Positions 46,539-51,386 of a DNA stretch of 64,000 bases are shown one piece after another. A program made the position numbers and the translations under genes. Origin of the DNA: a virus (Duplodnaviria > Caudoviricetes); IMG/VR virus record IMGVR_UViG_3300035676_000001. One strand, given 5' to 3'. Below the pieces are notes generated by a model. That model searched no databases, had not been told where the DNA came from, and saw only the letters and a program-made list of their open reading frames with translations. Position 1 is the stretch's first letter, and each line of letters begins with the position of its first letter.

Positions 46539-47510
46539 TCAGTCTCCCAGACCAATCTGATTGACGGCAATTCGTGCCTTATTCAGAATAGAACCTGAAA
46601 GAGGTACATAACCCAAATCATCAGCAATCATCTGTGCCTTAGAACTGAGAGCATACTTCAGAGCATTTCTGACTGCCTCTGCCTTACCAGGGGCATAACC
46701 ACTCTTATAAGCAAGAATCCAGGTCAGAGTGGAGATAGGATATGCACGAGGATTGGAAGGATTGGGGTCTTCACCAGCAAGATTCTTATCCAGAACAATA
46801 CTGTTCAGAGCAGCGGCACCAGTCACAGCAGAAGGTCCGACGAACTTACCTGCCTTATTTTGAAGAACTGCTGCTTGGAGTTTATTCGAACGAACAAATC
46901 CAGTATTCACATAACCAATCGCACCAGGAGTGTTCTGGATTGTACCAGCAACACCTTCATTACCCTTTGCACCGACTCCAACAGGCCAATTGATGGATTT
47001 ACCGACACCAGCAGTCCAACCACCGAAGGCATCCAGAGAGTTCGTGAAAGCAAAAGTAGTACCAGAACCATCAGCACGATGAACCACACTAACTTTACCA
47101 GCAGCACAACCGACTTGTTTCCAGTCTTTAATACGACCAGCAAAGATATCGACAGTTTGCTTCTGAGTCAGTTTCAGTTTGCAACCAGGTTTGTTATAGG
47201 CAACAGCAATCGTTCCACCCACCATAGGAATCTGAACGACACCACGCTTTACTTTTGCTGCTTCTTTTGTCTTGATGGGTTCGTCGCTTGCTCCGAAGTC
47301 AACTGTGCCCGCAACAAATTGACGAACACCAGCACCAGAACCAACGGACTGATAATTAACCCTGTTCCCAGTAGTTCGTGCATAATCTTGGAACCATCGT
47401 TGATAGATTGGTGCGGGGAAGGTAGCACCAGCACCATTAAGAGTAGGTCCAGCAAGTGCAGAGGTAGGAGCAAGAGCAAGACCGATTGTAGCAATATGTT
47501 TGAGTTTCAT
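46539..47510 (-). CDS. pstS: Phosphate ABC transporter substrate-binding protein
   Basis: LNGAGATFP...YQSVGSGAG...DFGASD...HRADGSGTT. Confidence 0.95.
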   Translation of the reverse strand: MKLKHIATIGLALAPTSALAGPTLNGAGATFPAPIYQRWFQDYARTTGNRVNYQSVGSGAGVRQFVAGTVDFGASDEPIKTKEAAKVKRGVVQIPMVGGTIAVAYNKPGCKLKLTQKQTVDIFAGRIKDWKQVGCAAGKVSVVHRADGSGTTFAFTNSLDAFGGWTAGVGKSINWPVGVGAKGNEGVAGTIQNTPGAIGYVNTGFVRSNKLQAAVLQNKAGKFVGPSAVTGAAALNSIVLDKNLAGEDPNPSNPRAYPISTLTWILAYKSGYAPGKAEAVRNALKYALSSKAQMIADDLGYVPLSGSILNKARIAVNQIGLGD

Positions 47511-47532
47511 AAGAATTAAGAACTTCGTAAGT

Positions 47533-47577
47533 ATTCTAAAATAGGAATAAAGTAAAGTCCACTAAGAATTGGTTAAG
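47533..47577 (-). promoter_or_regulatory. Putative pho box promoter of pstS
   Basis: CTTAACCA-3-CTTAGTGG-2-TTTACTTT, 10 nt, then TAGAAT, no -35. Confidence 0.6.
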
Positions 47578-47590
47578 GTTTTGATTTCAT

Positions 47591-47617
47591 AAAAAACCAC
47601 CCCAAAAAGGGGTGGTT
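47591..47617 (-). terminator. Porin terminator
   Basis: AACCACCCC/GGGGTGGTT + T-run. Confidence 0.8.
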
Positions 47618-47640
47618 CCACTCAACTTATGAGTAGTTTA

Positions 47641-49137
47641 TCAGAACCTGAACTGAGTCTGAATCACACCACCGTAGTTAGAAGAAGCATTCTTGAAACC
47701 TTGGTTGTTAGACACATAGAACACAGAAGGAGTGATGCTGATGTTATCGCTAACCTTGTAACGATAGAAGGTTTCCCACATCACAGCATCCTTGGTCAGG
47801 GAAGCAGCGTTACCAGGAGCACCGATGGCGAATCCAGCGGCATTACCCTTGGCGAACACGTCTGCCCACTGAAGACCAGCAAACCAAGTGGTAGAGTTAG
47901 TAGCACCAGTAGGAGTGCTACGACCAGCAGCATTCTTGCTCACTTCGTTCCAACCATAAGCACCAGAGATGGAAGGAACAATACCTGCCTTCTTAGGTTG
48001 CCAGTATGCGTTCAGAGCATAGTTGTTAGAGGTTTGTCCTGCAACAAGAGAACCAGAACCACCGTTCACAGCGTTAAAGTTGCGAACACGAGTTCCTTCA
48101 GTACCATAACGGTAACCGAATGCAGCACCGAACTGAGGAGCACGGTAACCGACCTGAGCAAGCAGGTTCAGAGCACCAGTCTCATCAAATTGACCCTTGG
48201 TAGAATCAGAACCGTTCTGAGCAACATAGTTCACACCAGCAACGAAACCACCCTTACCTTTCTTAACAGGTTGTGCCCACTGAGCACCGAAACCAGAACC
48301 CGTTGCCTTGTTGTAGACACCAGGAGCACCAGCAACTTGGAAGAAGTCAAGAATGTCCGACTTGTATGCAGAAGGAACCCATGCCATTTCGGTGTTACGA
48401 ACGATAGCACCAGCAGTCAGAGTTACGCCCTTTGCAAGACCAGGGAACTGGTAGTACAGACGGTCAAGTTTCACAGCATCAGCATAAGATTCTGCCTTGT
48501 CCAGTTTGAACAGTGAGGAAGAAGAACCAAAGGGTTGACTGGAGAAGTTACCCGAACGCAGACGAGTGCGGAGAAGGTCCTTACCAGTGAAGGAAGTATC
48601 GAAGTTCAGACGAACATCATAGTTGAATGCAGTATTACCAACATTAGTATTGTTAGCAAGACGAGCACCTTCTACACCACCAAGAACGAAGGTTGCTTCA
48701 CCACGCAGTTTGGTGGTAGTGGAGAACTGGGTTGCTTCCAGTTGTCCGACCTTGCTTTCAAGGTTGGTAACACGACCACGAAGAACGGCGAGTTCACCAG
48801 CAAATTCCTTTTGAAGGCGGCGGAGTTCATCGGTAACTTCCGTCACACGGTCAAGGCAAGCATTGAGAAGAGCAGCGGCTTCGTAACGAGTCATTGCCTT
48901 AGAACCACCAAAGGTGCCGTTAGGATAACCAGCAACGCAACCATAGTTTTCTACAAGGTTTGCGAGTGCCTGATATGCCCAATCACCAGGTTGAACATCT
49001 GTAAATTGGGAAACACTTGTAACCTGTTCATTGGAATATTGATTGACTGCTGCAATGTTAAGGTCTGCGGCATTTGCAACAGCAGGAGCAATCATACCAA
49101 GAGCAACAGGTGCAAGCATCAGTTGTTTGATTTTCAT
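47641..49137 (-). CDS. Cyanobacterial SLH-domain outer membrane porin (Som/OprB-like)
   Basis: Signal peptide, FTDVQPGDWAYQAL SLH domain, FSTTTKLRGE barrel start, C-terminal Phe. Confidence 0.9.
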   Translation of the reverse strand: MKIKQLMLAPVALGMIAPAVANAADLNIAAVNQYSNEQVTSVSQFTDVQPGDWAYQALANLVENYGCVAGYPNGTFGGSKAMTRYEAAALLNACLDRVTEVTDELRRLQKEFAGELAVLRGRVTNLESKVGQLEATQFSTTTKLRGEATFVLGGVEGARLANNTNVGNTAFNYDVRLNFDTSFTGKDLLRTRLRSGNFSSQPFGSSSSLFKLDKAESYADAVKLDRLYYQFPGLAKGVTLTAGAIVRNTEMAWVPSAYKSDILDFFQVAGAPGVYNKATGSGFGAQWAQPVKKGKGGFVAGVNYVAQNGSDSTKGQFDETGALNLLAQVGYRAPQFGAAFGYRYGTEGTRVRNFNAVNGGSGSLVAGQTSNNYALNAYWQPKKAGIVPSISGAYGWNEVSKNAAGRSTPTGATNSTTWFAGLQWADVFAKGNAAGFAIGAPGNAASLTKDAVMWETFYRYKVSDNISITPSVFYVSNNQGFKNASSNYGGVIQTQFRF

Positions 49138-49212
49138 AAAAGATTTGTGTTTTGTACTAAACGACAATGTAAAGATTTCCTACAGAAGAGAAAACCTTCG
49201 TATATAGGGGAA

Positions 49213-49316: not shown

Positions 49317-49388
49317 AGCGGCTGACCCGATTCGAACGGGCGACATCCAACTTGGAAGGATGGCGTTCTACCACTGAACTACAACCGC
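49317..49388 (-). tRNA. tRNA-Gly(UCC)
   Basis: CCATC-CTTCCAA-GTTGG arm, U73. Confidence 0.92.
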
Positions 49389-49389
49389 A

Positions 49390-49460
49390 ATGTGGAGGAT
49401 TTACCCAGCCTCAGAGTTTCCTCTTCATAGGCACGGAACCTCCGGCACTTCCTTCACACA
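49390..49460 (-). ncRNA. Candidate structured RNA with K-turn (unassigned)
   Basis: Own promoter TTGACA-17-TATACT (49466-49494), fold GGAGG/CCTCC enclosing GCC-TAT-GA-AGAG-GAAA-CTCT-GA-GGC. Confidence 0.6.
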
Positions 49461-49495
49461 AGAGAAGTATAGGACATAATGAGTATTATGTCAAG

Positions 49496-49568
49496 AGCCC
49501 CCGACAAGATTCGAACTTGCGACAAATGGTTTACAAAACCATTGCTCTACCAACTGAGCTACAAGGGC
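49496..49568 (-). tRNA. tRNA-Thr(UGU)
   Basis: ATGGT-TTTGTAA-ACCAT arm. Confidence 0.93.
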
Positions 49569-49642: not shown

Positions 49643-49679
49643 TTGTTTATTCAGTTAAACTTGGAGAATAAATCTCCAA

Positions 49680-49753
<74 letters not shown>

Positions 49754-49757
49754 ATAA

Positions 49758-49823
49758 GTAGGTTCCTATCGCCGCCACTCCTGAACCTACCGAAGGGGAG
49801 TACCGCAGTTGATTTCTCAACTC
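49758..49823 (-). ncRNA. Candidate pseudoknotted RNA (unassigned)
   Basis: Own promoter TTGACG-17-TATAAT (49828-49856), GAAA hairpin plus H-type pseudoknot. Confidence 0.6.
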
Positions 49824-49858
49824 TGATATTATACCAGTCCTTGAGAAAGTCGTCAAGG

Positions 49859-49999: not shown

Positions 50000-50683
50000 T
50001 TAACCATTGGAAACTATAGAAATTCCATCTAATGATTGTTCAGTTTTAAAAAGTTCAATAATATTACTATCGATAACATTTGGATCTACATACCAATCTT
50101 CAAAAGCGTGACCACAATTAAGAACATTTTTAGCAATTGATTCATATCCATAATCTCTAAAAATTTTTCTAGATTCCTCTACACATTCTGAAGAGGATCT
50201 ATAAGCATCAGTCTCATATGTAATCACAGAAAATCTGTAAGTATCTAATGGAAGATTTTTAAGGCAAGCAAGTGTTTGTTCTGCAGGATCAATGTCAAGT
50301 TGAAGATAATCAATCTGAGTTGAGAAATTATTTTCCTCAAAAATTTTACTATAATCTGCAGTAATTGCATTTGCACATATGCAATTATTTTTTCTAACTG
50401 AATTATAATGATTTACTTTCTCTGATTCAATTTCGAAAGAAACACCTTTCCAATCATATTCTGACTCTAAAAGATAGGTGTTATTAATCACAATTGGATC
50501 GTCTCCTCCAATTTCAATATAAGTTCCATTCTTCTTCCCATTCAGCATACTCAAAACAAACATATCCTGAAATGCTTGTGAGTAATTATTTTTAATGAGA
50601 TTTATATTTTTAAATTTATATTTTAAACTATTTGCATTTTCGGCAAAATATCTATGGCAATCATAGTCGGAAAAACTAGACAT
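50000..50683 (-). CDS. FkbM-like methyltransferase
   Basis: QAFQD...GTYIEIGG...NNTYLLE...IDYLQLDIDP. Confidence 0.65.
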   Translation of the reverse strand: MSSFSDYDCHRYFAENANSLKYKFKNINLIKNNYSQAFQDMFVLSMLNGKKNGTYIEIGGDDPIVINNTYLLESEYDWKGVSFEIESEKVNHYNSVRKNNCICANAITADYSKIFEENNFSTQIDYLQLDIDPAEQTLACLKNLPLDTYRFSVITYETDAYRSSSECVEESRKIFRDYGYESIAKNVLNCGHAFEDWYVDPNVIDSNIIELFKTEQSLDGISIVSNG

Positions 50684-50753
50684 AATACTAAAAATAATTT
50701 TTAATAATAAAAAAGGGAGTATCGTAGCACTCCCCCTTATTTATTCTATTTTA

Positions 50754-51386
50754 TCAAACCTCTACCGTGATCAGTTTGGAAGCATACTCATGTGCATAAG
50801 ATGTACGGGCACCATGATGCCCCCAACCAATCCAACTATACGCATAGTCCATATAACGATTGATAGATTTACCAGGAGTCTTCATACGCTCCTCAATCTC
50901 CTTCCACTGGACTTCATTCGTAAGATAACGAAGTTGCGTGTGAAGTGATGATGGCGAACCACCAAACTTCTTAGCAAAATCACCCAATCCATAATAACGG
51001 TTGGCAGATGTCCATTGAATCAGTCCGTAACCACGTCCGCAGTTACCCCAACTGGTTCTACTACCACCTTCGCAAATATTAGGAACGAATGTTGATTCTT
51101 GTCTAATATTGCCCATAATGGTAGCAAGGGCGTTTCTGTCTTTAATTCCAATGTCCTGAAAATAATTCAGGGCTACATTTTCATTTTCATTACACCCTTT
51201 ACAAATTAGCCTTTTCTCTTTTGGCTTTTCGGGAGCAACCTCTTTGGTCGCTGTCGGCGTTTCAAACTCCTTAATAACAGAAAACGGCGCTGGGGGAGTC
51301 GTCAAAGGAGGAAATATCGGCAGTGTTGCCATATTGGTTGTAACCGATGCCAGGAGAGGCAGGGCTACAGTAAAGAAGTTTTGCAT
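50754..51386 (-). CDS. Lysozyme-like cell wall hydrolase (tail-tip lysozyme type)
   Basis: ATIMGNIRQES...GYGLIQWT motif, hydrophobic N-terminus. Confidence 0.8.
   Translation of the reverse strand: MQNFFTVALPLLASVTTNMATLPIFPPLTTPPAPFSVIKEFETPTATKEVAPEKPKEKRLICKGCNENENVALNYFQDIGIKDRNALATIMGNIRQESTFVPNICEGGSRTSWGNCGRGYGLIQWTSANRYYGLGDFAKKFGGSPSSLHTQLRYLTNEVQWKEIEERMKTPGKSINRYMDYAYSWIGWGHHGARTSYAHEYASKLITVEV

Follow-up and report, generated by a model that had tools for sequence, protein, structure and literature searches.

What is a hairpin with the sequence signature of a kink-turn (K-turn) doing directly ahead of a tRNA gene in a bacteriophage? The question is raised by the 106 nucleotide (nt) spacer between tRNA-Thr(UGU) and tRNA-Gly(UCC), which lies inside a tRNA cluster (ARAGORN and Rfam) on the minus strand of a 64,000 nt stretch of viral DNA, IMG/VR record IMGVR_UViG_3300035676_000001. 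We use 'the window' for this whole stretch, and positions count from its first letter. K-turns are usually seen as protein-binding or architectural elements of ribosomes, small nuclear ribonucleoproteins and riboswitches. A first-pass annotation of the window had read the spacer as a promoter followed by a non-coding leader of about 70 nt that folds as a K-turn hairpin. It could assign this hairpin to no family and proposed two roles, a phage RNA released by tRNA 5' processing or a leader controlling tRNA output. Comparison with relatives identifies the hairpin, at the level of sequence, as a conserved RNA module with the standard K-turn signature. It forms an RNA family that has no Rfam entry; the motif is a known one, and so is the kind of place, the spacer of a tRNA operon.

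Conservation of the hairpin module

After TATACT, the tRNA-sense strand of the window reads UCUCUU GUGUGAAGGAAGUGCC GGAGG UUCCGU GCC UAU GA AGAG GAAA CUCU GA GGC UGGGUAAAU CCUCC ACAUU, followed by the first nucleotide of tRNA-Gly, G+1 (49388). The GGAGG/CCUCC hairpin and its tip, GCC-UAU-GA-AGAG-GAAA-CUCU-GA-GGC, are present as first described (coordinates in Table 1). The hairpin had been said to end 2 nt before tRNA-Gly and in fact ends 5 nt before it (ACAUU). Between the outer helix P1 and the canonical (C) stem lies an internal loop, in which CCG of UUCCGU probably pairs with UGG of the 3' side, leaving U49433 bulged. In one relative (L111) the U opposite the internal-loop G is replaced by C, which gives a G-C pair.

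The single sequence gives no signal of its own. The minimum free energy of the leader has a z-score of -1.23, and 19 of 200 shuffled sequences fold as well as it does. A minimal K-turn-hairpin pattern is matched 14 times in the window, where dinucleotide shuffles give 11.8 +/- 3.7, which is chance frequency. It is the comparison with relatives that shows the module to be more than chance.

Relatives were collected by searches fixed on different parts of the locus. An exact 22 nt string made up of the -35 hexamer plus spacer was found in 95 IMG/VR contigs, and the K-turn module is present in 20 of the 97 loci downstream of it. When the pattern specified nothing but the internal loop and left the K-turn core free, 69 true copies were recovered from IMG/VR loci (window included) and 83 from metagenome contigs, with part of the DNA shared between the two sets. 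The converse pattern, which specified the K-turn core and left the internal loop free, brought to light a second internal-loop allele, UUUCGU ... UGUGUAAAU, and a search for this allele gave 25 true copies. With covariance model R1, each contig has a single copy, and no additional diverged ones came up. In all, 164 copies, from viral and metagenome contigs of freshwater, wetland and estuarine origin, reduce to the 49 distinct versions compared here.

In the alignment of these 49 versions, 96.1% of the cells are paired in the proposed structure. Compensatory changes occur at 6 of the 16 pairs, four in P1 and two in the non-canonical (NC) stem. The covariation score was reached by none of 500 shuffles and by no slid register, and when the 3' partners are slid the pairing falls to 33-62%. 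RNAalifold independently predicts the same helices. The G.U wobbles function on the tRNA-sense strand only, which points to selection at the level of RNA.

The K-turn core is conserved at the positions that define the motif. The 5' GCC of the C-stem is invariant and, with pairing judged from complementarity, -1b.-1n is C-G in 49/49 versions; the outer pair is G-C, with G.U in two versions (GGC to GGU) and G.A in one. The bulge is U-R-U, except for a single UGC (L409), and its length is never altered. The tandem G.A/A.G pairs are kept in 48 of the 49 versions and in all allele-2 copies, in searches blind to those positions, and the GA of the non-bulged strand is invariant. Position 3b.3n is A-U, U.U, G.U or A.A and position 4b.4n is G-C throughout; a variable 3b.3n with a constant 4b.4n after the sheared pairs is the standard K-turn pattern. 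The NC stem drifts freely in sequence (AGG/CCU, AGA/UCU, AGGA/UCCU, UGGA/UCCU or GGAG/CUCU in relatives) and has 3 or 4 bp. Its cap is mostly GAAA but may be UUCG, AAAA, GAAU or UCAUAA, and since UUCG, AAAA or a hexaloop is tolerated the cap is not the functional part. The first-pass annotation had proposed a search for homologues, covariation and conserved G.A pairs as the way to check it, and all three were found.

The internal loop has just two alleles, in which UUCCGU goes with UGGGUAAAU and UUUCGU with UGUGUAAAU. Allele 2 differs from allele 1 in that one C and one G are both U, always jointly. Apart from these coupled alleles, the loop and its inner helix vary by one G.U to G-C change. 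The C-side loop and its inner 3-bp helix are constrained beyond the needs of pairing.

No entry of Rfam 15 matches 49389-49494 at gathering thresholds or at E <= 10, in agreement with the annotation, and full-text searches of the literature gave no description of the module in the papers covered. Among isolated phages, BLAST found the tRNAs only, plus the promoter and leader start in the freshwater Synechococcus phage S-SRM01; the module itself is in no isolate, and S-SRM01 has the short hairpin. The internal-loop pattern has two matches in 185,579 prokaryote species genomes, both due to chance. Model R1 gave one match of 33.8 bits and one of 22 bits in 101 picocyanobacterial genomes; neither is near a tRNA and both are taken as chance. 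The 33.8-bit match (L298 1501-1553, minus, Vulcanococcus limneticus) keeps GCC-GCU-GA-AGG..CCU-GA-GGC and is closed by a CUGGGG/CCCCAG stem. The match overlaps an open reading frame (ORF) at its stop codon, has no tRNA nearby and is the sole host-side look-alike in the 101 genomes, probably a chance one.

Genomic contexts of the module

The module is found with three sets of tRNA neighbours. Allele 1 stands before tRNA-Gly(UCC) behind a promoter in 57 of its 69 copies, in the spacer between tRNA-Ile(UAU) and tRNA-Met(CAU) without a promoter in nine, and before tRNA-Leu(UAA) in two. The 25 copies of allele 2 are distributed differently, with 16 in the Ile-Met spacer, four before tRNA-Leu and five before tRNA-Gly. 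The module is thus independent of both the promoter and the identity of the tRNA that follows.

The spacing to the tRNAs is close. From the end of P1 to the 5' end of the tRNA there are 4-5 nt, except in a subgroup with an extra small hairpin between the two. In the Ile-Met spacer only 0-2 nt separate the upstream tRNA from P1 and 4 nt separate the module from the downstream tRNA, and with such short linkers the module is placed like one more bead of the array. As with the spacer RNAs of tRNA operons, it lies between two processing sites, those of tRNA-Thr and tRNA-Gly here and those of tRNA-Ile and tRNA-Met in 25 relatives. The 3' ends of CCA-less tRNA genes are made by RNase Z. None of the tRNAs encodes CCA and RNase Z is therefore expected at their 3' ends.

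The place occupied by the module in the window is filled differently in related phages. Behind the conserved 5' segment GUGUGAAGNNAAGUG, the Thr-Gly slot contains a short hairpin, e.g. UGGGAGA-GAAA-UCUCCCA, in 53/97 loci, the K-turn hairpin in 20/97 and a tRNA-like cloverleaf insert of about 75 nt in 16/97. The other 8/97 include loci with no leader (L075, L088) or with a 184-aa HNH-like ORF (L030, L031, L071, L090). In the cloverleaf insert (L010 2391-2493, minus, and 15 other loci), a stem of 8 bp closes three arms: one of 4 bp with loop AAAAGUAA, one of 3 bp whose loop has 5 nt, and one of 5 bp that ends in the T-loop-like AUGCGAAA. The insert is not called as a tRNA by ARAGORN, and the L010 copy has no Rfam match. 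The HNH-like ORF (L031 4363-4917) has an N-terminal HNH-like motif; it follows the same promoter and stops 1 nt short of tRNA-Gly. Its match to Pfam HNH (E 0.0013) is below the cut-off, and it may drive the exchange of cassettes in the slot.

Identical tRNA-Gly alleles are found behind all three hairpin types. The slot is therefore a site of shuffled cargo, and it illustrates the trading of small-RNA cassettes in phage tRNA clusters.

Possible working of the module and alternatives

Taken together, we favour, at roughly an even chance of being right, a small structured RNA that is embedded in the tRNA array, would be freed by RNase P (and RNase Z), and has a K-turn that would need a bound protein. 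The module is promoter- and tRNA-independent, dispensable for tRNA-Gly and strongly constrained, and this argues for a payload of the tRNA-processing enzymes and not a device for the tRNA. Of the two roles first proposed, release by tRNA 5' processing fits the anatomy best, with 4-5 nt before the tRNA and the bead-like position between tRNA-Ile and tRNA-Met; release and stability of the RNA are predictions of this reading.

Under the favoured reading, a host sigma-70-type polymerase would transcribe the module from the consensus promoter at 49494-49466, and also by read-through from tRNA-Thr. The RNA would fold into P1, the asymmetric conserved internal loop, the 3-bp C-stem, the K-turn core and the short capped NC stem. 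RNase P would then cut at tRNA-Gly +1, 5 nt downstream, and free a leader RNA of about 70 nt, and in the Ile-Met relatives RNase Z and RNase P would together free a piece of about 55-60 nt. The K-turn and the adjoining invariant loop would most likely form a composite site for a protein outside the L7Ae family, and the RNA would act through this complex whichever tRNA follows.

The case for a protein comes from position 3b.3n. By Lilley's rules, a K-turn with a Watson-Crick or G.U pair at 3b.3n does not fold in metal ions alone, and the U4 and box C/D K-turns, which are of this class, fold upon protein binding (PMC4382518). The orphan bacterial K-turn RNAs, in contrast, have A.G or C.C at 3b.3n and fold in Mg alone (PMC8191799). 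By analogy, the K-turn of the phage module falls in the class predicted not to kink without a partner, and a protein-bound RNA is favoured because this class, unlike the orphan K-turns, needs protein.

L7Ae, the partner suggested by the first-pass annotation, is unlikely. At E <= 1, PF01248 (the L7Ae family) has no match in five phage records, namely two module-bearing records at least 96% complete, two partial module-bearing records and S-SRM01, and none in the genomes of five picocyanobacteria from the likely host group. The same search was positive in 8 of 14 control genomes. Comparison of the ORF clusters of 69 module-bearing loci with those of 67 other loci linked the module to small ORFs of unknown function and, inversely, to an Hc1-like gene; these links are confounded by relatedness and were not used.

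Several points weigh against a kinked, protein-bound and processed RNA. The first is that neither the PF01248 search nor the comparison of loci yielded a partner protein. The middle of the module has no compensatory change, which leaves the central pairing and the kink unproven, and U(L1) could pair with A1n to give an ordinary 4x1 internal loop. One version (4 copies) has G1b changed to A. Since the copies are related to one another and some come from shared samples, their counts overstate the number of independent events. The module is also accessory, since in its place related phages have a short hairpin, a tRNA-like insert or no leader. Finally, the RNA contigs are uninformative on transcript ends, abundance and processing. 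Four metatranscriptome runs cover small shares of the stretch only. One aquatic RNA run contains a 182-nt contig of a relative that runs from tRNA-Thr through the leader, and in another run the promoter is part of a contig from a relative with the short hairpin; both are assembled contigs, in which ends and DNA origin are undecidable.

The hairpin could instead be a purely structural spacer acting in cis, which keeps the leader or spacer from mispairing with the adjacent pre-tRNAs and sets 4-5 nt of single strand for RNase P. The K-turn-like loop would then have no role and the excised piece would be degraded. This would account for the GNRA hairpins with a similar G-rich P1 that occupy the same place in 53/97 promoter-anchored loci, for the similar hairpin 3' of tRNA-Arg in the window, for the constant distance to the tRNA and for the phages without a leader hairpin (L075, L088). 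However, an insulator has no need of about 30 invariant unpaired or non-canonical nucleotides amid drifting helices, nor would GA/GA be expected to be kept across three tRNA contexts and two alleles. We consider a spacer without further function unlikely. Even then, the module would offer a clean and testable family, about 50 nt long, found as two alleles and in three genomic contexts.

A selfish or neutral cassette might also look conserved if it had spread recently, by recombination or by co-conversion with a homing endonuclease, in a hot spot of the tRNA region. The identical tRNA-Gly alleles behind hairpin types A, B and C fit such a history, as does the HNH-like ORF in the same slot of four contigs, although its Pfam HNH match is below the cut-off. 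Recency does not explain why six pairs have changed with pairing always kept, or why the coupled loop alleles are found in all three tRNA contexts. These observations point to purifying selection, and we hold neutral spread to be quite unlikely.

It is improbable that the module folds by itself, through a kink that lets GAAA dock on the UUCC/GGUAAAU loop (by inspection, a look-alike of the 11-nt receptor) and makes the RNA resistant to nucleases without protein. GAAA is by far the commonest cap, the arms flanking the kink are similar in length and a UAAA run lies beside two G-C pairs in the internal loop. Docking was nevertheless ruled out as the main model by the UUCG, AAAA and hexaloop (UCAUAA) caps, to which GAAU can be added, and by an NC stem that varies between 3 and 4 bp. 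Moreover, the 3b.3n class does not fold in ions alone and the C-G pair of the putative receptor is U.U in allele 2.

The second role first proposed, a regulatory leader (attenuator, riboswitch or thermometer) tuning tRNA-Gly output, would suit a place between promoter and tRNA and the presence of K-turns in several riboswitch classes (PMC4382518), but is very improbable, because P1 runs into ACAUU and the tRNA without a U-tract, neither a terminator-like site nor a conserved alternative pairing was found, the module also occurs in a promoter-less internal spacer and before other tRNAs, and the same tRNA-Gly allele can have a plain hairpin, a tRNA-like insert or no leader instead.

Returning to a protein-bound RNA, the closest known structures are the 5' stem-loop of U4 small nuclear RNA and the box C/D K-turns, the sites of L7Ae and 15.5K. 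They share with the phage module GCC, three bulged nucleotides of which the last is U, then GA, an NC stem that is short and capped, and GA-GGC, as well as a Watson-Crick or U.U 3b.3n and a fold that forms only when protein binds (PMC4382518). The phage module differs in having no guide or small nuclear RNA function, no L7Ae gene in the searched genomes and an additional conserved C-side internal loop, and in lying in the pre-tRNA of a bacterial virus.

In placement, the module resembles 3'ETS-leuZ and the internal spacers of Escherichia coli tRNA operons. These are RNAs cut from tRNA transcripts that act as sponges of small RNAs by base-pairing and are not known to contain a K-turn. Like them, the module is a non-tRNA segment inside a tRNA transcript whose ends would be made by tRNA-processing enzymes, but no complementarity to a target was seen for it. 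Species 1 and 2 of phage T4 (rnaC and rnaD) are stable non-tRNA RNAs of about 120-140 nt in the T4 tRNA cluster, and we know of no report of a K-turn in them. They too are non-tRNA RNAs in the tRNA cluster of a T4-like phage, but are longer and have no sequence match in the phage collection. In plants, dicistronic genes for tRNA-Gly and a box C/D small nucleolar RNA are processed by RNase Z, with the small nucleolar RNA downstream of the tRNA and bound by L7Ae-family proteins. There, too, a K-turn RNA is co-transcribed with a tRNA and released by a tRNA enzyme; the system is eukaryotic and serves as an analogy only. The orphan bacterial motifs drum, RAGATH-18, HOLDH and Actinomyces-1 contain a standard K-turn, with -1b.-1n C-G in most (PMC8191799). 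They are likewise conserved structured K-turn RNAs from comparative genomics. Unlike theirs, the 3b.3n of the phage module is A-U, U.U or G.U and not A.G or C.C, and their Rfam models do not match it.

The module thus combines a free-standing, strongly conserved K-turn hairpin with a gene-like placement in phage tRNA arrays. What sets it apart is a K-turn of a protein-dependent class in the absence of L7Ae, together with its three tRNA contexts, its two coupled alleles and its exchangeable slot. If a partner exists, it would form with the RNA a K-turn ribonucleoprotein of a new kind, bacterial or phage, and the tRNA-processing machinery would be put to a new use, the production of a viral small RNA. 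A wider proposal, which we put forward as doubtful, is that freshwater picocyanobacterial phages have a hidden K-turn RNA gene in their tRNA arrays, matured by RNase P and RNase Z and bound by a new non-L7Ae K-turn binder from host or phage, with the cloverleaf and the short hairpin as alternative payloads of one RNA slot. Such a ribonucleoprotein might titrate or redirect a host factor for tRNA processing, translation or defence.

Promoter, leader and tRNA cluster

The promoter described by the first-pass annotation is present on the minus strand, and TTGACA-17-TATACT (49494-49466) matches 11 of 12 consensus positions in a promoter scan. In related loci TTGAC(A/G) is kept in all, whatever the sequence of the spacer, with TATACT, TATAAT, TACACT or TATATT as -10 hexamer and a spacing of 16-18 nt. 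Because both hexamers and the distance between them are preserved across differing spacer sequences, a promoter, predicted to be of the sigma-70 type, is likely ahead of the K-turn leader. Transcription would likely start at G49459, 7 nt past the -10 hexamer, and RNase P is expected to cut after U49389. The likely transcript is about 71 nt long.

The spacer of this promoter also contains a hairpin. GACAUAAU-ACUC-AUUAUGUC is a perfect palindrome with a single occurrence in the window. Of 42 distinct related spacers, 30 keep a stem of 7-9 bp that starts from GAC of the -35 hexamer; at least five different arm sequences form it, and the wobble pairs in it function on the tRNA-sense strand only. 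As the promoter spacer is also an RNA hairpin, transcription from tRNA-Thr must cross the promoter region too. The same DNA is likely promoter and transcribed hairpin in one, the hairpin possibly being a weak terminator or the 3' trailer of tRNA-Thr.

Table 1. Features of the tRNA-Thr to tRNA-Gly spacer and tRNA genes of the cluster in the window
Feature	Position	Strand	Evidence or remark
-35 hexamer TTGACA	49489..49494	minus	promoter scan; starts 1 nt past ARAGORN tRNA-Thr 3' end
-10 hexamer TATACT	49466..49471	minus	promoter scan
Promoter-embedded hairpin GACAUAAU-ACUC-AUUAUGUC	49473..49492	minus	from within -35 to 1 nt before -10
Conserved purine-rich leader 5' end, GUGUGAAGGAAGUGC	49445..49459	minus	found in all three hairpin types and before tRNA-Leu under another promoter
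K-turn hairpin module, P1 GGAGG (49443-49439) to P1' CCUCC (49398-49394)	49394..49443	minus	covariance model R1, 80 bits
Internal loop, 5' side UUCCGU	49433..49438	minus	sequence comparison
K-turn bulged strand: C-stem GCC (49432-49430), bulge UAU (49429-49427), G1b A2b (49426-49425)	49425..49432	minus	
NC stem AGAG/CUCU, cap GAAA (49420-49417)	49413..49424	minus	
K-turn non-bulged strand: G2n A1n (49412-49411), C-stem GGC (49410-49408)	49408..49412	minus	
Internal loop, 3' side UGGGUAAAU	49399..49407	minus	kept in samples drawn independently of UGGGUAAAU
Linker ACAUU, hairpin to tRNA-Gly	49389..49393	minus	4-5 nt linker with final U in all contexts
tRNA-Tyr	49940-49857	minus	ARAGORN and Rfam
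tRNA-Arg	49754-49679	minus	ARAGORN and Rfam
tRNA-Asn	49642-49571	minus	ARAGORN and Rfam
tRNA-Thr(UGU), upstream neighbour	49495..49568	minus	ARAGORN; Rfam tRNA, 69 bits; CCA not encoded
tRNA-Gly(UCC)	49317..49388	minus	ARAGORN; Rfam, 64 bits; CCA not encoded

The purine-rich start of the leader, GUGUGAAGGAAGUGC, has a single occurrence in the window and is missing where the module is an internal spacer. At its extreme 5' end (GUGUGAAGG, window 49451-49459, minus) is the 7-mer UGUGAAG. In most relatives this 7-mer is repeated as the K-turn bulge plus GA (CCUGUGAAGG), where the window has UAUGAAG (49423-49429). The repetition is either a coincidence or a shared recognition element.

Three further candidates in the leader were rejected. 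A small ORF behind GGAGG, AUG-AAG-AGG-AAA-CUC-UGA, has GUG for AUG in most relatives and a 2-nt stem indel shifts its frame; it is therefore not coding. A T-box-like specifier GGA in GAAGGAAG is not kept, relatives having GAAGUGAAG, GAAGGCAAG or GAAGCGAAG. An outer helix GUGU/ACAU is not kept in relatives either.

The window is from a T4-like freshwater cyanophage, with PhotoRC-II and wcaG RNAs present (Rfam), and is about 77% identical to S-SRM01 over parts. Its DNA occurs in sequencing runs of metagenomes from wetlands, fresh water and lakes. The interval 49755-49856 (minus) contains, directly after tRNA-Tyr, a second consensus promoter (TTGACG-17-TATAAT, extended by TG) and then a structured leader before tRNA-Arg. 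A third, TTGACA-18-TATGAT (49278-49249), follows tRNA-Gly and has an inverted repeat CACAAC/GUUGUG in its spacer. The tRNA genes of the cluster seem to be individually re-promoted.

Directly 3' of tRNA-Arg is a hairpin UUGGAGA-UUUAU-UCUCCAA (49659-49677, minus), which closely resembles the short pre-tRNA-Gly hairpin of two related loci (L013 and L038). The neighbours of the tRNA cluster (46539-49167 and 50000-51386, minus) are PstS, an SLH/OprB-type porin, an FkbM-like methyltransferase (a weak match) and a phage tail lysozyme.
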